Part shown: positions 27,390-64,000 of the stretch, in pieces
Layout of the letters: each line of letters opens with the position of its first letter
How positions within the stretch are numbered: the first letter of the stretch is position 1
Source of the DNA: a virus
Taxonomy: Duplodnaviria; Caudoviricetes
IMG/VR virus record: IMGVR_UViG_3300028888_000067
Location: 64,638 to 128,637 of that record
Strand: one strand, 5' to 3'
Length of the DNA stretch: 64,000 nt
Made by a program: the position numbers and the translations under genes
The notes under the pieces: generated by a model
The model's input: only the letters and a program-made list of their open reading frames with translations
Told to the model about the DNA's origin: nothing
Database searches by the model: none

Positions 27390-28094
27390 ATGAAAAGACA
27401 GATAAGGCTTGGCACGTTTGAGACGAATTCCAGTTCGACGCACACTATCGCGATAGCGAAACATCTGACGAACGACAATATTGACCGGCGTATCGGCAAA
27501 TACGATTTGTACGACGAATGGGAAGAAGGCGAATTCGAATTCGGCAGGCAGCCGAAAATCGAGAATTCGGCGGGAAAACGTATCGCCTACGCTGTTCTCG
27601 TGTTTCTCAATTATCCTAATGAAATTGTTCCCGTCGAAAAACGACGGGAGTTTTACGGAAAAATATACAATATAATCGACCATAATCTGCCGGACAAACC
27701 GGAATCCGTTTACGATACTCCGAAAGAGACCGTTATCGCCGGTGTCATGAAACTTATACAATTCTGTGAATGGGCAAGCTATTGCTGGCTCAACGAATGG
27801 ACTCCGACATACACAGCGGAAAACGAGATTATAAACCATGAGCATTACGCATATGTCGACCATTGCGAAAGCGCGAGAAAATTTTATGAAAAAATAACCA
27901 CGGACGATTCCGCCCTTGAACGGTTCATAATGGCGAAGAACAGTTTCGCATACGCCGGAGGAGACGAATGGAACGGTTATTATATGCCAAGAGTCGGTTT
28001 TGAATATGATTACGATGACGACAAGGAGTTTTTCAAAGCGGCGAAATCTATGGCGAAAAAACTCGATGTCGAGCTTTTTTTCAAAGGAAATTGA
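27390..28094 (+). CDS. FETNSSS-motif protein A (long type)
   Basis: MKRQIRLGTFETNSSSTH...YVDH...GGD...FKGN. Confidence 0.8.
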   Translation: MKRQIRLGTFETNSSSTHTIAIAKHLTNDNIDRRIGKYDLYDEWEEGEFEFGRQPKIENSAGKRIAYAVLVFLNYPNEIVPVEKRREFYGKIYNIIDHNLPDKPESVYDTPKETVIAGVMKLIQFCEWASYCWLNEWTPTYTAENEIINHEHYAYVDHCESARKFYEKITTDDSALERFIMAKNSFAYAGGDEWNGYYMPRVGFEYDYDDDKEFFKAAKSMAKKLDVELFFKGN

Positions 28095-28122: not shown

Positions 28123-28464
28123 ATGAAAAGACAAATTAGAATGGGTGTGTTCGAGACTAATTCCAGTTCGACACACAGCTTAGCGCTCTTCAACAAAGAG
28201 GAGTATGAGAAATTCAAAAACAACGAGACATTGCTTAAGTATGATCTCCAGACTATCTTGACTGAAGAAGAGTGCAATGCTTTGAAGACAGATGAATACG
28301 AGAAGTTCATCCAGCAGAATGATCTTGAAGATGACATGTCAGCTCTTGCAGAATTCGTTGATGACTACTACAGCTATGATTCAATGAATGAATATGAGAT
28401 CCTTGAGGAAGAAGTCCCCGGAACAGATTATGTCGCAGTGTCGTTTTTCTCTTATGAAGGCTAG
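28123..28464 (+). CDS. FETNSSS-motif protein B (short acidic type)
   Basis: MKRQIRMGVFETNSSSTH. Confidence 0.8.
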   Translation: MKRQIRMGVFETNSSSTHSLALFNKEEYEKFKNNETLLKYDLQTILTEEECNALKTDEYEKFIQQNDLEDDMSALAEFVDDYYSYDSMNEYEILEEEVPGTDYVAVSFFSYEG

Positions 28465-28466
28465 TC

Positions 28467-28718
28467 ATGGCAGTTGCTGAATTGAGGTTTTCAAAAGAAG
28501 TCGCAAAACTTCTTTTTGAAAAGTACAAATACCAGACAATTGTGTTTGGAAAGATAAAGCAGCTTCTGGGCTGTGACAATGACTATGCGAACGATGTCAT
28601 GGAAGGGAGAGCAGACTTGACTATCAGTGAAGTGTCAGGACTGCTTGGGAAGGAAGAATTCATAAGAATCGTCAAACAATTAAATGAAGAAAAATGGAAC
28701 TCACGAAACATGAAGTAA
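28467..28718 (+). CDS. Hypothetical protein
   Basis: 83-aa ORF. Confidence 0.6.
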   Translation: MAVAELRFSKEVAKLLFEKYKYQTIVFGKIKQLLGCDNDYANDVMEGRADLTISEVSGLLGKEEFIRIVKQLNEEKWNSRNMK

Positions 28719-29533
28719 GAGAAATCATACAGAAACCCGGAATCGACGGGATGATCGAACACATTGACTATTGTGCTGGAGTCTGCTACAACAGGCATGG
28801 GCTCAGCAAAGACTCATACAGATTTGTCAGGAGCTTGTATGACAAAAGGCATATGCGGCCGTTAGAGTTTGGCACAGCGAATCTGGCGATACCGTTCATC
28901 GATTTCATCAATGACACCACAGGAAAACTGTACAGCATTCTTGACTCGCCATACACGAAAAGCTTCTATGACAATAACGACAAGATGCGGTACATCACGA
29001 CTAACTTCAGAGGCATCTGTGAAGTGTTTGGCAGCTTTGATGACGCTTTAGACTTTGTAAGGAACTATCATTCAGAGCAATCATATTTTGTCAGACGGAC
29101 AGCCGCTTGGAAATGCGCGAGAGTAATCGCTGATGAGTTCCGCACGCACGTCACTCTGTCATCACTTATGAAAAGCACAAGATATGTGAATGAGATGAAG
29201 AACGGGATGTCATTCACGATTCCGTATTGGTTTGAATATAATGAGAATGGAGAATATCCTGAAGACAGCAAAGAGTGGCTTTTCTGCAGCCAGTGCGAAG
29301 ACACTGAAATCCGGTACAACAGATGCATCAATGAGTTTAACATGAAACCACAAGAAGCTAGAGACTTCCTTCCACTCGGACTTGAGACTGAACTGTACCA
29401 GTGCGGGTTCATTGGAATCGATGGAACCGGATGGAACAGGTTCTTCGAAATGAGGATAGATCCGGCAGCGCATCCTGATGCACAAGTGCTTGCTACAGAA
29501 CTGAAAGCTATCTTTGAGAAATCTCCAATGTAA
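28694..29533 (+). CDS. thyX: FAD-dependent thymidylate synthase
   Basis: A.VCY, H..PLEF, EFRTH..SS..KSTRY, PQEAR..LP, W..F...R...AAHPD. Confidence 0.85.
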   Translation: MELTKHEVREIIQKPGIDGMIEHIDYCAGVCYNRHGLSKDSYRFVRSLYDKRHMRPLEFGTANLAIPFIDFINDTTGKLYSILDSPYTKSFYDNNDKMRYITTNFRGICEVFGSFDDALDFVRNYHSEQSYFVRRTAAWKCARVIADEFRTHVTLSSLMKSTRYVNEMKNGMSFTIPYWFEYNENGEYPEDSKEWLFCSQCEDTEIRYNRCINEFNMKPQEARDFLPLGLETELYQCGFIGIDGTGWNRFFEMRIDPAAHPDAQVLATELKAIFEKSPM

Positions 29534-29546
29534 AACCTGCTCATTC

Positions 29547-29558
29547 TTTTGTTATATA
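29547..29558 (+). promoter_or_regulatory. TTTTGTTATATA promoter-like motif
   Basis: One-mismatch copy of the repeated motif. Confidence 0.55.
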
Positions 29559-29572
29559 CAATAAAATGAACA

Positions 29573-30073
29573 ATGATGGAAAAGAAGAAAGTGTATCTTG
29601 CCTCATCGATGGAACCGCAGTTCCGAGAAAGCATCAAGTATGCTGCTGAGATTCTGCGCCACACTTTTGAAGATGTGTATGTGCCAATGGAACATACTAT
29701 CACAAATGCCTGGGACTACCCGAACAATGAATGGGGACTTATGGTGTTTGAAGATGATATGCATGCAATCAACAGATCAGACTATGTCATTGTTCTGAAC
29801 TATGGCAGGAAGAACACGACTGCAGGCTGTGCTTGGGAAGCAGGATACGCTTTTGCTCTTGGAAAGAAAGTGTTCATTGTTGATGTCTATGATCCGAAAC
29901 GGCCGGACATAAAAACGAAAAGTGATGAGACAAGGGAATACTTCAAAGACAAGTTCATCACTTCACTTATGATTGAGAATGGTAGATACGCTACAATCAA
30001 TGGACTTTATGGACTTGAATGTTATGACTGGAAAAACTTGCCGCGAGAAAGGACATTATATGAACAGAAATAA
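29573..30073 (+). CDS. Nucleoside 2-deoxyribosyltransferase-like / dNMP N-glycosidase
   Basis: KVYLAS, VF..D..AI..SD, G.AWE.GYA.ALGK. Confidence 0.85.
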   Translation: MMEKKKVYLASSMEPQFRESIKYAAEILRHTFEDVYVPMEHTITNAWDYPNNEWGLMVFEDDMHAINRSDYVIVLNYGRKNTTAGCAWEAGYAFALGKKVFIVDVYDPKRPDIKTKSDETREYFKDKFITSLMIENGRYATINGLYGLECYDWKNLPRERTLYEQK

Positions 30074-57219: not shown

Positions 57220-57597
57220 ATGATTGTGTCTATACTCATATTGGCAATTGCTGCAAATTTCATCTATGTGATGACGAATGTTTTCCCGTCTGTGTTCAAG
57301 CCGAAATACAACAAAGCTGCCATAGACATTTACATACACAGCAATTACAAAGTAATTGGAACGGCATCAGACGGCAAGATGAAACTGTGGATATTGAAAG
57401 ACGACACGGAAAACATACTGATGCCTGTGATAACGAAAAACACTCATTCATGGCTTAGCAAATGGGATTTCCATATCTATGACGAGAACAAGCCAAACAC
57501 AGTGATGCTGTTTTCCCCGATAGACCCGATGGCTAGAAAAATAATCAACAAATTGAAACCAGTAATAGAAGAATATGAACGAAAAAATTCTCTATAG
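57220..57597 (+). CDS. Hypothetical protein with N-terminal TM
   Basis: Hydrophobic N-terminus. Confidence 0.65.
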   Translation: MIVSILILAIAANFIYVMTNVFPSVFKPKYNKAAIDIYIHSNYKVIGTASDGKMKLWILKDDTENILMPVITKNTHSWLSKWDFHIYDENKPNTVMLFSPIDPMARKIINKLKPVIEEYERKNSL

Positions 57598-58645
57598 TCT
57601 CAATGATGTGACTATCATACCCAACAAGTTCAATGACATATCCAGCAGATCCCAGTGTCATGTGTATTATTCATCAGGATGTCTTCCGTTGTTTGCTGCA
57701 CCAATGAGCTGTGTGATTGATGAAAACAATTGGGAGACATTCAGCAAACATGGCATCAACGCAGTCGTTCCGAGAAACATCGACTTTGAAGCAAGACTTG
57801 GACTTTCTTCTAAGACATTCGTCGCAATTAGTCTAGCTGAACTGGAAACGATTGTAGAAAAAGGGAAGTCATTGGTTGCTGACGACGTCAAACATTATTT
57901 CTGTGTAGATATCGCTAACGGGCACATGAAAGTATTGTATGACTTGTGCTACAAAGCAAAAGAGATATTTAGTCATAACATATCATTCATGGTAGGAAAC
58001 ATTGCTAATCCTGAAACATACTATTGTATTGTTGAAAATTATCCGGGTGTGATTGACTATGTGAGATGCGGCATTGGCTGTGGATCAGCATGCACTACTT
58101 CTGCGAATGGCGGCGTCCACTATCCAATGGCAAGTCTTCTTGTAGACATATGCAGAGCGAAACTAAAGTCCGTAGACATAGGCTACCCGAAAATCGTAGC
58201 AGATGGCGGGTTCAGCAACTTTGACCAGATTATAAAAGCTTTAGCGCTTGGCGCAGATTTCGTGATGCTTGGAAAAATATTCGCGAAAACTGAAGAAGCT
58301 TGTGGCGAAACTCACATAAAATACACGTGGAGCAACCCGAACGCATTAGTGTATGTCGACAAGCATGAATATTATGGCGACAGAGAATATATCAAGTGCC
58401 GCAAGTATTATGGCATGTCAACAAGAAAAGCACAGCAAGAATTTGGTGGCAGCGGGATGAAGACAGCTGAAGGGATAGAGACGACTGTCGATGTAGAATA
58501 CTCATTGTCGGGATGGGTGGAGAATTTCAAGTCATACCTCAAATCGGCAATGTCATACACGAACTTCAAAGACATACATGATTTTGTCGGCGGGCCTGAA
58601 GTGTGTCTGATGACAGGCTCAGCTTTCCGTTCTTACTTCAAATGA
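57575..58645 (+). CDS. IMP dehydrogenase / GMP reductase family protein
   Basis: AAPM, VDIANGH, GNIA, GIG.GSACTT, ADGG, KALALGADFVMLG, YYGMS, SAMSY. Confidence 0.92.
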   Translation: MNEKILYSLNDVTIIPNKFNDISSRSQCHVYYSSGCLPLFAAPMSCVIDENNWETFSKHGINAVVPRNIDFEARLGLSSKTFVAISLAELETIVEKGKSLVADDVKHYFCVDIANGHMKVLYDLCYKAKEIFSHNISFMVGNIANPETYYCIVENYPGVIDYVRCGIGCGSACTTSANGGVHYPMASLLVDICRAKLKSVDIGYPKIVADGGFSNFDQIIKALALGADFVMLGKIFAKTEEACGETHIKYTWSNPNALVYVDKHEYYGDREYIKCRKYYGMSTRKAQQEFGGSGMKTAEGIETTVDVEYSLSGWVENFKSYLKSAMSYTNFKDIHDFVGGPEVCLMTGSAFRSYFK

Positions 58646-58660
58646 TAAAATGCCAAGTTT

Positions 58661-58675
58661 TTTTGTTATATTAAA
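58661..58675 (+). promoter_or_regulatory. TTTTGTTATATTAAA promoter-like motif
   Basis: Copy of the repeated motif; heads the gene run containing the radical SAM gene. Confidence 0.65.
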
Positions 58676-58698
58676 TTGTAACAATTAAAATTCTGAAT

Positions 58699-59163
58699 AT
58701 GGAAAAGACAAAATTTGAAAAACTTGTTGCAGATTACAAGGGAACAGACGAGCACGCGAAAGAAGCTGCTCACAAAGAACTAGTAAAGGCTGGCCAGGAC
58801 CTCATCAAAAAGTACGCCAAGATTGCCAAGAAATTTGGCGACATCGTGTGGCCTTTGAAACACTTCACTGAAAACAACGGCAAGCTGAAGCAGATACTTG
58901 GCATTGATGACGAAGGCATCTTGTTTGAAGGAGAATACAGAGATTATGACCATGAAACTGGCCATAAGGACGCGTGTGGTGTTTCTTATATAACTCTGCT
59001 TATGCGTTCATTCACCGATGAAGACTTGACAGTGTTCATTGAGGACTGCCGCAAGACCGCAATTGACGATCTCCAAGCAAAAATAAGTTCTTGTGAGAAG
59101 GAGATTGCTGACGCCAAAAAAGAAATCAAACGGATAGAAAAACTGAAAACCAACATCAGATAA
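58699..59163 (+). CDS. Hypothetical protein with C-terminal coiled coil
   Basis: 154-aa ORF. Confidence 0.7.
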   Translation: MEKTKFEKLVADYKGTDEHAKEAAHKELVKAGQDLIKKYAKIAKKFGDIVWPLKHFTENNGKLKQILGIDDEGILFEGEYRDYDHETGHKDACGVSYITLLMRSFTDEDLTVFIEDCRKTAIDDLQAKISSCEKEIADAKKEIKRIEKLKTNIR

Positions 59164-59164
59164 T

Positions 59165-59584
59165 ATGGAAAAAGAGAATATTTTTGACACTGCAGGCGCC
59201 ATAAAAGAAATGGTGTATGGTCCGACAAGAAAATGCGAAGTTCTTGCTCAAGGCACTTATCGTGGAATCGACTATCATGTCATCTCTTATGGCACGCATC
59301 CCTGCTCATATATCCGAGTGCCTGACGGGAACAAATTCTACGGGAAAGACTACGATGACATTCCGCTTGACTGCCATTGCGGACTGACTTTTAGCGCAAT
59401 GTTCCCGAACGTGAACGACAGCCACAATGACATGTTCTCAGATGGATTCTGGATTGGCTGGGACTACGCGCATTACTGTGATTATTCAGCGTATATTGGC
59501 GAAGGGACGCAATACACCATTGATGACTTGCTTCATGACATGCAGAACACAATTGACTCATTCATCGAAATTTCTAAACAATGA
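59165..59584 (+). CDS. Conserved phage protein (H.GLTF...WIGWD.AH.D)
   Basis: HPC.Y, CHCGLTFS, WIGWDYAHYCD. Confidence 0.75.
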   Translation: MEKENIFDTAGAIKEMVYGPTRKCEVLAQGTYRGIDYHVISYGTHPCSYIRVPDGNKFYGKDYDDIPLDCHCGLTFSAMFPNVNDSHNDMFSDGFWIGWDYAHYCDYSAYIGEGTQYTIDDLLHDMQNTIDSFIEISKQ

Positions 59585-60942
59585 AACTGATAGGAAAATA
59601 CAGAAACGGAAACTACAATGTGTCCATCTTTGACGATGGCACTAAAATCAGAGAGACTGAAGAAGATGAGTTCATTCCCGATTTCTCTGAAAACTGTGAT
59701 GTCAAACTGACTGACAAGTGTTCGATGGGTTGTCCCTGGTGTTATGAGGGCTGCACTTCTAACGGGCTTCATTCTAACATAGATTTAGAGTCCCCGTTCT
59801 TCAAAAGCTTGCATCCCTACACTGAACTCGCAATCAACGGCAATGACATGGACCATCCGCAGCTTGTCGATTTCTTGAAAGCTCTTGCTGAGAAAAAAGT
59901 GATTGCGAACATCACATTGAACCAGAAACAGTTTGAGAAGAACTTCGCATTCGTGAAGCAGCTTCAAGAGTCAGGGCTTGTCCACGGCATTGGTGTCTCA
60001 TTAGTGTCAGCTACAGACAGTCTCATCAAAATGATGAAAAGCATAGACAACTGTGTGCTGCACACGATTTGTGGAGTCTTGTCAAAAGAAGACATCGAGA
60101 TTCTCAAGGACAAGGGAATCAAGATTCTGATTCTTGGCTACAAGAACCTGAAGCGCGGCAAAGACTATATGGACGGGCACATGCATGACATCGCACTGAA
60201 CCGCATGTATCTCTACACTGTCCTTCCACTTATGACTGGCTGGTTTGATGTCGTGAGCTTTGACAACTTGGCTATAAAGCAGCTTGCAGTCAAAAGACTG
60301 CTTGATGAGAAAGAATGGGACGAGTTCTACATGGGTGACGATGGACAATACACATTCTATGTAGATTTAGTGAAGAATGAATACGCGATGAACTCTCTTG
60401 CAGAAGAACGGTTCCCAATGGGTGACAAAACAATCGATGAGATGTTCAATCATGTAAGGAATCTAAGCAAGCAGAGACGTGTGGTGCGGCATTCGTTGTT
60501 TGAGACCAATTCAAGTTCGATCCACAGTATAGTGTTTCCTGCTGGAAAATGTGAGCAGAAGCTGAAACCCGACAACCACGGTGTCATACGGTTCCCATGT
60601 GGTGACTTTTCTGACACAGGCATTGTCTATGGCTTGCATGACAAGTTGTCTTACTTGTGCTCATACATCGCATTGAACTATTATGACAGATACGAAACTG
60701 AAGAGCAAGTCGGACAGACTTTGTCTGCTCAGCAATGCTGGGAACTGGAAAACATTCTGGAAGCAATCCAGAAAGAATATCCTGATGTGTTAGAGCTAAA
60801 AGCGATATTCTGTGAGAATGCAGTGTTTGACCACCAGACACACCCGAGCTGCCGTGAGTGCATAGTCGACTTGTATGACATAGACCAGATTCACGATTTT
60901 TTGTTCAATGATGACATCAAGATAAAAATGGATAGAGACTAA
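59581..60942 (+). CDS. Radical SAM enzyme fused to a C-terminal FETNSSS-motif domain
   Basis: CSMGCPWCYE (CxxxCxxC); residues ~300-453 begin RRVVRHSLFETNSSSIH. Confidence 0.88.
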   Translation: MKLIGKYRNGNYNVSIFDDGTKIRETEEDEFIPDFSENCDVKLTDKCSMGCPWCYEGCTSNGLHSNIDLESPFFKSLHPYTELAINGNDMDHPQLVDFLKALAEKKVIANITLNQKQFEKNFAFVKQLQESGLVHGIGVSLVSATDSLIKMMKSIDNCVLHTICGVLSKEDIEILKDKGIKILILGYKNLKRGKDYMDGHMHDIALNRMYLYTVLPLMTGWFDVVSFDNLAIKQLAVKRLLDEKEWDEFYMGDDGQYTFYVDLVKNEYAMNSLAEERFPMGDKTIDEMFNHVRNLSKQRRVVRHSLFETNSSSIHSIVFPAGKCEQKLKPDNHGVIRFPCGDFSDTGIVYGLHDKLSYLCSYIALNYYDRYETEEQVGQTLSAQQCWELENILEAIQKEYPDVLELKAIFCENAVFDHQTHPSCRECIVDLYDIDQIHDFLFNDDIKIKMDRD

Positions 60943-60980
60943 CAATATATGTATAAAAATAAATTTTAAAACTAACAAAT

Positions 60981-61181
60981 ATGAATATTAAATGCTTATT
61001 AAGTTTGTTTTTCTCAATTATAGTAATCATCTGTTTAGTATTTAATGTCAAGTCAATTTTTGCTGCAATCAAAAGAGACAACAGTAATGGCATAGGACTT
61101 TCAATTTTCGCGGCTGTAATATGTGCATTTGCATTGGCTATCAATTTAAATGTTGTAATATCAGCAATCATAAGTGACTAA
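60981..61181 (+). CDS. Small two-TM membrane protein
   Basis: Two hydrophobic helices. Confidence 0.6.
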   Translation: MNIKCLLSLFFSIIVIICLVFNVKSIFAAIKRDNSNGIGLSIFAAVICAFALAINLNVVISAIISD

Positions 61182-61186
61182 ATATC

Positions 61187-61450
61187 ATGAACGAGAAAGA
61201 CGAATACATCTACGTGTTTATATGTGCCGAGTCCAACTACTTTGGCCAGACATTTAAATACAGCGCTACATATGCCATCGGCAAGGATGCCAATATGGAC
61301 AGCGTGATAGACCACGTTACCGAGGAGATGAACGAAAAATTTGAGGATTATCTTGATGGACTCAATCCGCTTCCTCGTGCAGGAATCACTTCTATGAATG
61401 AGATTTCTAAGGAACTGTATGATCGCCTTCATCAAGGGTACAAACAATAA
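61187..61450 (+). CDS. Hypothetical protein
   Basis: 87-aa ORF. Confidence 0.65.
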   Translation: MNEKDEYIYVFICAESNYFGQTFKYSATYAIGKDANMDSVIDHVTEEMNEKFEDYLDGLNPLPRAGITSMNEISKELYDRLHQGYKQ

Positions 61451-61466
61451 CAACAATTGAAATCAT

Positions 61467-62027
61467 ATGAAAAAGAAACTAAGACAATCTGTTTTTGAGA
61501 CAAACTCAAGTTCAACTCACTGTTTGAGTGTCAGGAACGCAGACGCATCTGACGCAATCAGACAATACATGCAAGAGAACGGCAAGACACTCAATGTAAA
61601 AGGCGACAGCTTTGGATGGGAGTTCGAGACATATGACACACCTGCCAAAAAGCTAAGTTATGTGTACACATTGGCGTGCTCATATAGCTGGGACGAATAT
61701 CTCACAATGAGAGAATTCATGAAAGAAACTTTGCGCAGTGTCGGGTTCGAACCAATCTTTGAAGAAATGAAAGAATACAAGTATTCTCCTGATGGCGACA
61801 GCTTTGTCGAACCCGTTCAGCGAGAAAGCTGGGATGTGTATATAGACCATTCTGAATGTCTTGAAGATTTTGCTGACAAGATTTTTTCTGACAAAGATTT
61901 GATGTTGAGTTTCATTTTCAACAAAGGATCATACATTCTGACTGGAAACGACAACGATGATCGTGAACTTGGCGGGCATAGTCCGGAAAAATATGAAGAT
62001 TCATTCACTTATTACAAAGGAAACTGA
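61467..62027 (+). CDS. FETNSSS-motif protein C (long type)
   Basis: MKKKLRQSVFETNSSSTH...KLSY...YIDH...TGNDN...YKGN. Confidence 0.8.
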   Translation: MKKKLRQSVFETNSSSTHCLSVRNADASDAIRQYMQENGKTLNVKGDSFGWEFETYDTPAKKLSYVYTLACSYSWDEYLTMREFMKETLRSVGFEPIFEEMKEYKYSPDGDSFVEPVQRESWDVYIDHSECLEDFADKIFSDKDLMLSFIFNKGSYILTGNDNDDRELGGHSPEKYEDSFTYYKGN

Positions 62028-62028
62028 T

Positions 62029-62427
62029 ATGAGAAAAATGTTGTTTTTATCAAGCTTTGTCTTGGCCAGTCTATTTTCAACTGCCCAGACAATAGAATGC
62101 AGTGGCACATATATGGTGATTGAGCCAAAATATGGCATATATGTGAAAGACTGCAATGTGTGCGTCAATGAGCAATATGCTGAAATTTATTTGTTTGACG
62201 AAGAAGTGGTTGTTCCAGTGTACGAGACAAAACACATGAATGTCAAAGATTTATGCGGCACAGTCTATTACATTGATGAGTCGTTGACATCATACATATA
62301 TTATGGAACATCTGAAGATACTGGTGCGTTTGTTGTCTCATTAGTAAACAATGATGGGAGATGGACATTTGTGAGATATATTAAAGTCAATCAAGATGAA
62401 AAAAGAAACATTTGTGAAACTAATTGA
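62029..62427 (+). CDS. Secreted/periplasmic protein
   Basis: ATG at 62029; signal MRKMLF...STA|Q. Confidence 0.65.
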   Translation: MRKMLFLSSFVLASLFSTAQTIECSGTYMVIEPKYGIYVKDCNVCVNEQYAEIYLFDEEVVVPVYETKHMNVKDLCGTVYYIDESLTSYIYYGTSEDTGAFVVSLVNNDGRWTFVRYIKVNQDEKRNICETN

Positions 62428-62805: not shown

Positions 62806-63504
62806 ATGAAACTATACCACAAGAAATATGCAGAATTTCCGGTAGAAATACCAGAAAACTCAATCATTTTGAGAGCAGACGATGACTATCAGCTGAAAAG
62901 TGTGTATCCAAACTATCCAGTACCATTTTGTCTGGAGGTAGATGGCATAAACAAGATAAACTGGAATGCTGACGGATATTTTGACTTCAGCAAGTCAATC
63001 ATAGACATCGGTGCAGATCTTGGCGAGTATTGCTGGCTAACGAATTTCACTCATGCATACGCGTTTGAGCCAAACAGGGAAAGTGTGTTCGCATTATGCG
63101 CAAATGCATTGCTGCACGATGCGGTGTACAAGATAACGATATATGAGAACTTTCTTTCTGACAGAGAAACAGAAATCCCGTTCAATGGCTTCAACACTTT
63201 GGATGTGAATGCGGACACACCTGTCGTGAGAACACGGACATTAGACAGTTTCAATTTGACTGCAAACATTGGCTGCATAAAGATTGATGTCGAAGAACAT
63301 GAATATGAAGTGATATGTGGAGCAAGAGAGACTATAAAAGCGAATGACTATCCGCCAATCATATTTGAGTGTTTCAAACCAGGCGTGTTTGGAATGACTC
63401 AAGAACGGTATGACAAAACACATAACATATTGGAAGAAATGGGATACACGATTCTCGAGTCTTGGATAGAGCCAAACACACATCTTGCGATTCACAATAA
63501 ATAA
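62806..63504 (+). CDS. FkbM-family SAM-dependent methyltransferase
   Basis: IDIGA..G, AFEPN, TLDSF, IKIDVE..E.EV..GA..TI, PII.E. Confidence 0.88.
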   Translation: MKLYHKKYAEFPVEIPENSIILRADDDYQLKSVYPNYPVPFCLEVDGINKINWNADGYFDFSKSIIDIGADLGEYCWLTNFTHAYAFEPNRESVFALCANALLHDAVYKITIYENFLSDRETEIPFNGFNTLDVNADTPVVRTRTLDSFNLTANIGCIKIDVEEHEYEVICGARETIKANDYPPIIFECFKPGVFGMTQERYDKTHNILEEMGYTILESWIEPNTHLAIHNK

Positions 63505-63531
63505 ATAACAGGTTTAAGATTTTGAAAATAA

Positions 63532-64000
63532 ATGATTACAAGCTTAAGTGAAGACCAGAAGTTTTTCGTCATAGAATCATGCACGCAAGATGAGTATGAC
63601 CAGCTGAAGACTGCTTACACTAAAAAGCCTGACGGGTACCGTTTCAACCCGATGTACAAGAAAGGCTTGTGGGATGGCAACATCACATTCATAAAGGGTG
63701 CGTATATTCCATCAGGCACTTGGTCGTATCTCGTTGATGTCAGCAAGATGTGCAACTGGCAAGAGCTGAAGTTGAACGGCATTGGAGACATGTTCGACAC
63801 TGGCATAACGGAAGAGTCATTCAGCAAATGGTGTGAAGACTTTTTCTCAGATCTTTCTTTCAAGCCAAGAGATTACCAGATTGAAGCTGCTTACAACATA
63901 TTGAAATACCGCAAATGTCTTTCTGAATTGGCTACATCTGCTGGGAAGACACTTATCTGCTTCATGGTGATAGCCTATCTGTTTGACCAGAAAAAAATAA
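63532..64000 (+). CDS. uvsW: UvsW-like SF2 helicase, 5' part (reaches right edge)
   Basis: Not in ORF track; manual translation GYRFNPMYKKGLWDG, PRDYQ, ATSAGKT. Confidence 0.85.
   Translation, partial: MITSLSEDQKFFVIESCTQDEYDQLKTAYTKKPDGYRFNPMYKKGLWDGNITFIKGAYIPSGTWSYLVDVSKMCNWQELKLNGIGDMFDTGITEESFSKWCEDFFSDLSFKPRDYQIEAAYNILKYRKCLSELATSAGKTLICFMVIAYLFDQKKI

Follow-up and report, generated by a model that had tools for sequence, protein, structure and literature searches.

The window, a 64,000-nucleotide stretch of the 128.6-kb record of a large gut phage, contains four copies of the motif R-x3-FETNSSS-x-H, all on the plus strand. A six-frame scan of the window places the starts of FETNSSS(T/I)H at 27417, 28150, 60499 and 61494; as in the preliminary description, three copies are N-terminal and one is internal; from the window's own six-frame residue frequencies, 6.4 × 10−4 copies of FETNSSS would be expected by chance. 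The three N-terminal copies lie 10 residues past the Met of the open reading frames 27390-28094, 28123-28464 and 61467-62027. The fourth copy forms residues F307 to H315 of a 453-residue open reading frame (59581-60942), straight after a radical SAM (rSAM) domain with a CxxxCxxC motif. An Arg is present at position −7 relative to the Asn in all four copies. The complete record contains one rSAM enzyme and only these four tagged domains. Hereafter, the motif-bearing segment is called the tag and the proteins carrying it clients.

The 453-residue protein (59581..60942, plus strand) joins a tagged domain directly, with no linker, to the C-terminal end of an rSAM domain. It is matched by phrog_16999 ('Fe-S oxidoreductase') at residues 31-278 (E 2e-35) and by phrog_28997 at residues 302-366 (E 1e-5), while purpose-built HMMs cover residues 1-298 (rSAM, E 1.5e-150) and 300-450 (tagged domain, E 2e-15). 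The internal tag, R303-x3-F307-E-T-N310-S-S-S-I-H315 (60487..60525, plus strand), begins about four residues past the C-terminal helix of the rSAM domain (residues 285-299 of the model) and opens the fused tagged domain (60487..60939, plus strand), a variant of what we call the long type, with FDHQTHP and FLFNDD motifs. This domain is 35% identical (E 5e-22) to a stand-alone 158-residue tagged protein of three relatives (L001-L003), encoded about 580 bp downstream of a stand-alone rSAM gene; the window fusion would have joined the nearest client to the enzyme C-terminus through loss of these 580 bp. A second rSAM-client fusion, P0002, is 83% identical and comes from another sample. Because of this copy, and because the C-terminal domain is the orthologue of the relatives' stand-alone gene, an assembly artefact, a concern raised in the preliminary description, is ruled out.

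The rSAM domain (residues 1-300; 59581..60480, plus strand) is modelled by AlphaFold2 with a pLDDT of 94.5 as an N-terminal three-stranded sheet, in which Y7, N9, G10 and G20 are invariant, followed by a partial TIM barrel and, at the C-terminal end, a hairpin and helix that contain no cysteine. The [4Fe-4S]/SAM cluster motif, C47-x3-C51-x2-C54 (59719..59742, plus strand), and the signature YMGDDG..T.Y.D.V, both pointed out beforehand, are conserved throughout the family. No other Cys is invariant in either of two alignments, one of 12 sequences including distant fusions and one of 39 sequences, leaving no candidates for auxiliary-cluster cysteines, and Pfam detects no PqqD/RRE domain in the window enzyme. 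The score against PF04055 is 14.5 bits, below the gathering cut-off of 29.5, and three distant relatives (P0013, P0389 and P0390) have precomputed PF04055 matches; the subfamily is divergent in sequence, yet it has the motif and the fold of the radical SAM superfamily. The best structural matches to the model are SkfB, with Z 16.8 across 267 residues, and SuiB, with Z 16.6 across 277, and Foldseek ranks SkfB, CteB and SuiB at the top. The 33 chains with Z of at least 8 are mostly rSAM enzymes, with a few designed TIM barrels. The highest-scoring are the peptide maturases SkfB, SuiB, EpeE, anSME, ChlB, PqqE and CteB, interspersed with BlsE and viperin. Only in SkfB and SuiB can the N-terminal sheet be aligned; the C-terminal hairpin and helix align with the same region of these two enzymes, but are devoid of cysteines.

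The stand-alone client adjacent to the fusion (61467..62027, plus strand) is a long-type protein of 186 residues with a GYIDH-type DH motif and TGNDN and YKGN motifs. It matches phrog_28997 over residues 4-167 (E 5e-14) and has relatives in 1,769 clusters (50% identity clusters, E of at most 1e-3). The 234-residue protein (27390..28094, plus strand; tag from 27417) is a long-type variant with FGRQP, YVDH and FFKGN motifs, to which the family profile aligns in two pieces, at positions 1-89 and 104-170, and phrog_28997 with E 5e-6. Automatic calling put its start at TTG 27366; the ATG at 27390, chosen in the preliminary description, is to be preferred because the distance from Met to tag is fixed in the family. 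The third client (28123..28464, plus strand), of 113 residues and pI 4.1, is of a short type, in which an EY..F/WKN..E segment comes after the tag, then an acidic stretch and finally, at the C-terminus, a hairpin motif. The long-type profile matches it at positions 1-35 only, and phrog_28997 only in the tag (E 1e-3). The short-type family was seen in 120 loci, and homology between its body and the long type is undetectable (hhalign probability 0.3%).

In an alignment of 111 long-type relatives, the K-A/L-S-Y helix, Y-x-DH, the LF segment and the C-terminal KGN are conserved columns, matching the shared features recognised earlier. The invariant columns are R6, E11, N13, S14-16, H18, W51, Y65 and D162, with no Gly among them. 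The model of the 186-residue protein has a pLDDT of 90.2, with a confidently folded body; no match to a solved structure was obtained with Foldseek against the PDB (best E 0.46) or VIA-align against 48,161 chains (best Z 2.7), which does not prove a new fold. A BFVD search with the model returned one uncharacterised Myoviridae protein only, and the ESM Atlas returned the family's own unnamed viral clusters and one 261-residue Tad2-like (PF11195) cluster (TM 0.58). The Tad2 lead found no confirmation: ten longer family members had no Pfam domain and feature searches gave nothing named; one of the ten, P0225, had a sub-threshold Dark_CARD match (16.9 bits against a cut-off of 25). The tagged proteins had no match in Pfam, NCBIfam or PADLOC scans, nor in sequence and profile searches of the PDB. 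HNH-like and HAD-like readings of the DH, NDN and hhhFETN motifs were considered and dropped, as neither the order of secondary structure in the model nor the fold searches supported them.

Among 267 unique tagged N-termini, with consensus M-K-x-Q-I-R-x-G-V-F-E-T-N-S-S-S-x-H-S, the tag is nearly invariant: R at −7 (100%), F at −3 (98%), E at −2 (100%), T at −1 (99%), the Asn itself (100%), the three Ser at +1, +2 and +3 (100%, 100% and 96%) and H at +5 (99%). The same residues are invariant in the 111 sequences collected by phmmer without use of the pattern. A Met is found at −12 or −11 in 240 of the 267; Gly at −5 occurs in just 50%, so that the tag contains no invariant Gly. Judged from sequence comparison, the tag is a portable N-terminal module, present on at least four classes of body whose mutual homology is undetectable (hhalign probability 0.1-1.4%). 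The motif had been proposed to define a domain family; this holds for the long type and fails for the tag as such, which also occurs on bodies with no detectable homology, the short type of the window included. Within the client model, confidence is lowest over the tag residues (pLDDT 63-79, while the body exceeds 90), in keeping with flexibility of this segment. A Tat signal or secretion function was discarded by eye, since the tag is not followed by a hydrophobic stretch and only 33% of the sequences have Arg at −6.

In a set of 50,697 phage records, clients were matched in 24 and the rSAM enzyme in the same 24 plus one weak partial match. These records belong to two unrelated groups, Lak megaphages and Microcystis Ma-LMM01-like phages, with the genes 0.1-2 kb apart. 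An rSAM gene adjoins the client in 76 of 80 IMG/VR client loci and is present in 64 of 78 client loci from prokaryote assemblies, many of the remainder being truncated contigs; conversely, 76 of 78 rSAM loci have a client, on the same strand and with a median gap of about 8 bp. Independent fusions occur in both orders, rSAM-client in the window gene and P0002 and client-rSAM in P0389 and P0390; the enzyme part of the latter two belongs to the same subfamily (E 1e-15, with 25% identity across the entire domain), and their loci contain no other client. Co-occurrence, adjacency and fusion thus all speak strongly for the functional partnership that had been suspected, and an obligate genomic partnership of the two genes is strongly supported by these surveys. 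Carriers include Lak megaphages, Ma-LMM01-type cyanophages and many gut and rumen phages. Eubacterium plexicaudatum ASF492, a cultured strain, also has a copy on one of its contigs, likely as a prophage.

A survey of neighbouring genes revealed no conserved third gene family beside the pair, the commonest neighbour being present in 20 of 109 rSAM groups. The IMPDH/GMP-reductase-like gene upstream of the fusion (57575-58645) was considered as a third member and rejected, as only close relatives keep it and it is outside the ten commonest neighbour families across 216 loci. A PNK-like kinase, RNA ligase or Thg1 gene lies within 6 kb of the module in 26 of the 109 groups. The window's own record contains neither an RNA ligase nor an AAA_33 kinase, and its Thg1-like gene is about 70 kb away, outside the window; the window has no tRNA genes. 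In phage Ma-LMM01, gp128 is 32% identical to the window rSAM domain and gp130 is 31% identical to the client. All three genes gp130, gp129 and gp128 are in the middle expression class B5, and a promoter was called only before gp130 (PMC5780444, Table S3).

We consider it somewhat better than an even bet (roughly 0.55) that the rSAM enzyme binds the tag and chemically modifies it. Since the enzyme resembles peptide maturases, the tag is portable and a complex prediction points weakly the same way, we infer that this is the most likely reading, and that the pair probably constitutes an undescribed protein-modification system; the earlier proposal that the enzyme modifies the FETNSSS segment is upheld to that extent. 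The rSAM-client complex scored 0.47, with 0.00 for the best of three controls; the runs agree in at least 35% of contacts, and the partner pLDDT is at least 65. Of 80 solved complexes 58 attained the mark, as against 2 of 110 mismatched pairs; at scores of 0.60 or under, only 7 of the 80 did so, along with both mismatches. Our use of self-made alignments, together with riding ligands, leaves these counts rough only. The prediction weakly favours binding. As envisaged, a small enzyme with a single [4Fe-4S] cluster would work with client proteins that all start with the tag, forming a self-contained phage module. The enzyme would dock the unstructured tag and draw it into the open side of the barrel, where reductive cleavage of SAM would yield a 5'-deoxyadenosyl radical that takes a hydrogen from a residue of the E-T-N-S-S-S-x-H stretch, leading to a post-translational modification. 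The same enzyme would act on several clients that differ in body; in the window, one of these is fused and three stand alone.

Several features argue against the tag being a substrate. Its sequence offers neither Cys nor Gly, the usual target residues, and nine near-absolutely invariant positions across phages of many host phyla exceed what is usual for recognition sequences. A single chain of enzyme and client, as in P0389 and P0390, would suit a two-domain enzyme no less well than one that modifies itself. In the window fusion the tag follows the last rSAM helix with almost no linker, which may make modification in cis difficult on steric grounds. In the main rival explanation, the tagged proteins are interchangeable subunits: the tag would plug into the enzyme, completing the active site or anchoring the client, and the different bodies would determine which third substrate (a nucleic acid, nucleotide or host protein, for instance) undergoes the radical chemistry. 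The Rosetta-stone fusions in both orders, some of them the sole tagged copy in their locus, and the near-catalytic invariance of the polar residues E, N, S, S, S and H agree with it, as do the room left for a partner by the absent auxiliary-cluster domain, the frequent proximity of RNA-repair and nucleic-acid genes and, in the long type, a polar constellation (D127, H128, N161, D162, N163, K184 and N186) that resembles a ligand site. We nevertheless regard it as unlikely, since the loci contain no conserved third component or common substrate-related gene, the short-type bodies are small, acidic and highly variable, unlike a specificity domain, and the substrates of the enzyme's closest relatives in structure are peptides.

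Less probable still, at perhaps an outside chance, is that the rSAM enzyme and the long-type protein act one after the other on a small molecule or nucleic acid, each catalysing its own step, with no contact between tag and enzyme, the motif being an active-site loop of the long type; tight operon linkage and fusion are typical of consecutive enzymes too and the long type has conserved D, H and N motifs, but the invariant segment on unrelated bodies devoid of those motifs, and its fixed distance from Met1, would be left unexplained. Self-cleavage of Asn-Ser-Ser-Ser by serinolysis or Asn cyclisation into a pyruvoyl-like or N-terminal nucleophile cofactor, with the rSAM enzyme doing something else, the second idea of the preliminary description, is very improbable: known self-processing enzymes use Ser-Ser and Asn-Ser sites, and a His follows five residues on with a conserved DH pair in the body, but the obligate rSAM partner is unaccounted for, the tag also occurs on short bodies with no DH pair and the client model, for what the weak evidence of a missing match is worth, resembles no solved self-processing fold.

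Returning to modification of the tag by the enzyme, we tentatively envisage a phage-wide post-translational modification system, in which a minimal single-cluster rSAM enzyme performs a new radical reaction on the Asn/Ser-rich N-terminal tag of several unrelated folded proteins, one of them with no solved-structure match, giving a new modification or a protein-derived cofactor in the middle infection phase of large phages of Bacteroidota, Firmicutes, cyanobacteria and other hosts. Copies of the module abound: there are more than 6,000 rSAM homologues, nearly all of about 300 residues and stand-alone, and some 1,800 tagged-protein clusters, and neither component has an assigned function. Modification of the tag would mean new radical SAM chemistry on folded proteins without the auxiliary clusters that the structural relatives need, and would provide a 17-residue recognition tag ready for transfer to other proteins. 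A sizeable part of phage 'dark matter', expressed together with the replication genes, would thereby acquire a function. The window fusion and P0389/P0390 are single-polypeptide versions that should suit biochemistry, and Ma-LMM01 and the E. plexicaudatum copy are culturable systems.

We found no Pfam or NCBIfam family and no paper describing an rSAM-tag system; full-text literature searches for the motif, or for rSAM together with Lak, Ma-LMM01 or phage RiPP, returned nothing relevant, and the literature searched contained no description of a function, partnership or tag for phrog_16999, phrog_28997, gp128 or gp130. The window proteins are members of these two PHROGs, the second annotated as of unknown function, which are automatic clusters and annotations only. 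Among known systems, the glycyl-radical enzyme activases PFL-AE and NrdG are small single-cluster rSAM enzymes too, each paired with a folded protein, and pairs of this kind are found in phage genomes. However, PFL-AE matches the rSAM model much more weakly (Z 9.6) than the peptide maturases do, the tag has no invariant Gly or RVxG-type motif near a C-terminus, and the clients are small and of several unrelated kinds.

The sulfatase maturases anSME and AtsB (Z 13.7) resemble the module in that an rSAM enzyme acts on a short invariant Ser/Cys motif of a folded client and one maturase serves several clients. Their client motif is (C/S)xPxR, whereas FETNSSSxH has no Pro or Arg after the Ser residues and is N-terminal, at a fixed distance from Met1. 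Their two-electron oxidation needs two auxiliary clusters, which the window enzyme lacks, and their clients have the alkaline-phosphatase fold, unlike those described here. Closest in fold to the rSAM model are SkfB (PDB 6EFN), SuiB (5V1Q/5V1T), CteB, EpeE, ChlB and PqqE. As in RiPP maturase systems, the enzyme gene adjoins partner genes for peptide-bearing proteins, and a conserved N-terminal segment is common to the partners. The RiPP maturases have SPASM/twitch auxiliary-cluster cysteines, while here only CxxxCxxC is invariant; as the enzyme lacks the auxiliary clusters of its closest relatives, their thioether, C-C cross-link and Ser oxidation chemistries are not simply transferable, and the absence of Cys from the tag excludes thioether chemistry altogether. 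Their substrates are short precursor peptides and not folded partners of 95-260 residues, and in them a leader precedes a variable core, whereas here the likely target is the conserved N-terminal segment itself.

A six-frame scan of the window finds FETNSSS(T/I)H four times, always on the + strand (at DNA 27417, 28150, 60499 and 61494), each with an Arg at position -7 from the Asn. Three of the copies are found ten residues past the start of a stand-alone ORF on the + strand: 27390-28094 (234 aa) and 61467-62027 (186 aa), both long-type variants, and 28123-28464 (113 aa), of the short type. The fourth (F307-H315) is internal to a 453-aa fusion ORF at 59581-60942, also on the + strand, in which a long-type variant follows a radical SAM enzyme (rSAM) with its CxxxCxxC motif (C47-x3-C51-x2-C54) in the N-terminal 300 residues. 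The arrangement proposed in the preliminary description, three N-terminal copies and one behind the rSAM domain, is confirmed, as is its claim that this is no chance 7-mer: given the residue frequencies of the window itself, FETNSSS would be expected 6e-4 times. The N-terminal 300 residues of the fusion match phrog_16999, 'Fe-S oxidoreductase' (E 2e-35), and in Pfam the ORF gives only a sub-threshold match to Radical_SAM. Its C-terminal part and the three other tagged proteins match phrog_28997 (function not annotated); the tagged proteins have zero matches in Pfam and NCBIfam. The source IMG/VR record, of which the window is the second half, is 128.6 kb long, is judged 42% complete and contains in total one such rSAM and four tagged domains.

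The motif is the core of a tag that is portable, near-invariant and probably flexible. Over the 267 unique N-termini of all fetched loci, with positions relative to the Asn, the tag has R at -7 (100%), F at -3 (98%), E at -2 (100%), T at -1 (99%), N at 0 (100%), S at +1 (100%), +2 (100%) and +3 (96%), and H at +5 (99%); 240 of these N-termini have a Met at position -12 or -11. Stripped of the tag, the bodies of these proteins, here called clients, form 26 BLAST clusters, the two large ones being the long type with 170 loci and the short type with 120; proteins of both types are acidic (median pI about 4.6). In the short-type body, an EYxxWKNGE segment is accompanied by a variable acidic stretch, and the motif TTPSGDxxVAFGYYGHD lies at the C-terminus. 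Hhalign probabilities are 80% for the long type against cluster 4 and 91% for the short type against cluster 7, and drop to 1.4% for the long type against cluster 5 and 0.3% against both cluster 2 and the short type; the low values indicate that an invariant, fixed-distance tag is carried by at least four body classes without detectable mutual homology. The 'domain family' proposed earlier thus holds for the long type and does not detectably extend to the short body of 28123-28464.

A pattern-free phmmer search with the 186-aa protein retrieved relatives in 1,769 clusters. When 111 of these sequences are aligned, R6, E11, N13, S14, S15, S16, H18, W51, Y65 and D162 are invariant, and F10, T12, G50, D127, H128, F151, S155, T159, N161, N163, K184 and N186 nearly so. 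The long-type model calculated from the 111 sequences has a pLDDT of 90.2 and a pTM of 0.87, with the tag residues 1-20 predicted least confidently (pLDDT 63-79). Compared with the PDB it gave nothing significant (Foldseek best E 0.46; VIA-align best Z 2.7 over 48,161 chains), and no solved relative of the clients was found there; a match undetected for a predicted model is not proof of a new fold. The predicted-structure libraries returned only its own unnamed viral relatives and one unconfirmed cluster from the ESM Atlas, a 261-aa viral Tad2-like group (PF11195 in 97% of members) that superimposes on the 61467-62027 model with a TM of 0.58 over 140 residues. This match may hint at a related body fused to an anti-Thoeris sponge domain. 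One long-type tagged protein, P0382 (356 aa), is interrupted mid-domain by beta-propeller-like repeats (PDPSTLPTG..GWGVAFDSTGTYLAV) of about 190 residues, which separate its N-terminal half from the GYIDH motif; either a genuine insertion or a chimeric assembly could account for this.

Clients and rSAM together form a module that is obligate and self-contained, with a single rSAM and between one and ten tagged proteins. Among 50,697 annotated phage records the 186-aa protein matches 24, namely 15 Lak Prevotella megaphages and nine Ma-LMM01-like Microcystis phages; the rSAM domain matches the identical 24, plus one weak partial match, and the two genes are 0.1-2 kb apart. The loci fetched with motif patterns agree, although many are related and their counts do not represent independent events: an rSAM lies within 10 kb in 76 of the 80 IMG/VR loci fetched by the tagged family, mostly as the immediate same-strand neighbour on either side (long type, short type and rSAM, in that order, is the most frequent layout), and a tagged gene is present in 76 of the 78 IMG/VR loci fetched by the rSAM, in one to six copies, the gap having a median of about 8 bp. 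Of the two exceptions, one has a tagged gene on the same contig, about 27 kb off, similar to the window's own pair at 27-28 kb, which lies about 31 kb from the rSAM. In prokaryote assemblies the rSAM occurs in 64 of 78 client loci, many of the remainder being on truncated contigs; these are mostly metagenome bins, with Eubacterium plexicaudatum ASF492 and Lachnospiraceae bacterium MD308 as cultured representatives. Even if the loci are not independent, the pairing holds across phages whose hosts differ widely, whichever partner is used for the search, bearing out the co-occurrence and adjacency anticipated earlier. Tagged paralogues are expanded in some loci, to ten in a Prevotella MAG contig (L165) and to six each in L101 and L131, the latter binned with a Methanobrevibacter MAG.

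Fusion of the two partners is real but rare. More than 6,000 homologues of the rSAM domain were found, almost all about 300 aa long and stand-alone; the 453-aa fused form is limited to the window's own protein (on three contigs) and P0002, a homologue 83% identical to it from a different sample, so that the fusion is not unique to this assembly. In the related loci L001-L003, a stand-alone rSAM (71% identical) is followed about 580 bp downstream by a gene for a 158-aa tagged protein. This protein (35% identity, E 5e-22) is orthologous to the domain fused in the window, whose lineage thus lost the intervening DNA. In the fusion, the tag follows the last rSAM helix (residues 285-299 in the model) nearly without a linker. 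The opposite order, a tagged domain (FATNSSSSHS) and then rSAM, is found in two distantly related proteins, P0389 (500 aa) and P0390 (481 aa), whose rSAM is about 25% identical to that of the window across the whole domain (E 1e-15), N-terminal strands and C-terminal signature included. As both orders exist, fusion arose independently in each orientation. The P0389 and P0390 loci contain no other tagged genes.

The rSAM domain model (pLDDT 94.5) most resembles SkfB (VIA-align Z 16.8, 267 residues aligned) and SuiB (Z 16.6, 277 residues), followed by BlsE (14.8), EpeE (14.6), viperin (14.3), anSME (13.7), ChlB and PqqE (both 13.4) and CteB (12.9); the Foldseek leaders agree. Only with SkfB and SuiB does the alignment start from residue 1-3 and span the conserved three-stranded N-terminal sheet, in which Y7, N9, G10 and G20 are invariant. 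Only three cysteines are invariant, all belonging to the SAM cluster. The modelled enzyme thus looks like a peptide maturase, yet one without auxiliary clusters. A 702-aa homologue (L123:3593-5701) is split by an intein carrying a LAGLIDADG homing endonuclease (PF14528, E 2e-10; PF14890, E 4e-8); inteins are usually found in conserved, important enzymes.

The rSAM domain, with its 4Fe-4S cluster and SAM, was co-folded with the 186-aa client. The complex scored 0.47 (runs 0.47, 0.02 and 0.48) and the best of three controls 0.00, with at least 35% of contacts in agreement between runs and a partner pLDDT of at least 65. In calibration, 58 of 80 solved complexes and two of 110 mismatched pairs reached the mark, and at scores of 0.60 or below only seven of the 80 did, as did both mismatches, counts that are only rough here given our own alignments and the riding ligands. 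The prediction weakly supports binding; because the genomic evidence had made binding likely beforehand, we count it as modest support and no more.

In Ma-LMM01 the client is gp130 and the rSAM gp128, separated by gp129, which is not a tagged protein. Table S3 of PMC5780444 places all three in middle class B5 and, of the three, calls a middle promoter before gp130 only; in that data set no expression is recorded for them at 0 and 1 h, and their values at the final two time points are about 9.3-10 (apparently log2). This pattern fits a single transcript made alongside replication genes.

No further neighbour family is conserved. Within 6 kb, in raw counts, the top one, a PNK-like AAA_33 kinase, occurs in 20 of 109 rSAM groups, a metallophosphatase in 12, an N6/N4 DNA methylase in 11, a C5 DNA methylase and an RNA ligase in 10 each and a Thg1-like gene in eight; at least one of kinase, RNA ligase and Thg1 is found in 26 groups. 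Genes of the RNA-repair type are recurrent neighbours of the module (loci L012-L247), with RtcB, RlaP and CCA-adding enzyme in single loci: the ASF492 copy is placed after RlaP and CCA-adding enzyme, RtcB is near P0390, and P0389 adjoins an Apyc1-like gene with Thg1 nearby. Outside the window, some 70 kb upstream of its rSAM, the window's own virus record has a gene for a Thg1-like 3'-5' nucleotidyltransferase (PF04446, E 4e-34; G000:C1:53417-53917). Upstream of the rSAM, 57575-58645 is an IMPDH/GMP-reductase-like gene (PF00478, E 5e-35), in the same position in the close relatives L001-L004 and absent from the ten commonest neighbour families of all loci. Just past the fusion, a 66-aa ORF with two hydrophobic helices (60981-61181) corresponds in position and length to a gene in L004, and the ORF at 62029-62427, with 62029 as its likely start, has a signal-peptide-like N-terminus (MRKMLFLSSFVLASLFS). 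An FkbM-type methyltransferase (PF05050) and the start of a UvsW-like helicase (UvsW_N and ResIII), which continues beyond the window end, occupy 62806-63999. Directly after the tagged pair at 27-28 kb, 28694-30073 encodes ThyX (PF02511, E 2e-16) and a nucleoside 2-deoxyribosyltransferase (PF05014, E 1e-14); a deoxyribosyltransferase is also near the reverse-order fusion P0389 (L248).

In the reading we favour, with a probability of roughly 0.55, the rSAM would dock onto the client tag, abstract a hydrogen from it and leave a modification behind. Since the enzyme has no auxiliary clusters and the tag neither Cys nor Gly, thioether formation, oxidation of the anSME type and storage of a glycyl radical are disfavoured; candidate chemistries within F-E-T-N-S-S-S-x-H are epimerisation, dehydration and cross-linking through C-C or C-O bonds. 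The main alternative, that the tagged proteins are adaptor subunits, draws on the single-copy fusions of the P0389 and P0390 loci, on a tag invariance of catalytic grade and on the conserved polar site of the long type itself; we regard it as unlikely, while taking it seriously. That enzyme and clients are pathway partners without mutual contact explains less than either of these readings and is improbable; autoprocessing independent of the rSAM, which also explains less, is more improbable still.

We found no paper mentioning the FETNSSS motif or the pairing of this rSAM with its clients. Nearest in working to modification of a client tag by the rSAM are the RiPP maturases and the anSME-sulfatase pair. 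The rSAM described here differs from RiPP maturases in being without their auxiliary clusters and in the type of its client, and from the anSME-sulfatase pair in the auxiliary clusters again and in both client motif and client type; by the features that define those systems, it belongs to neither.
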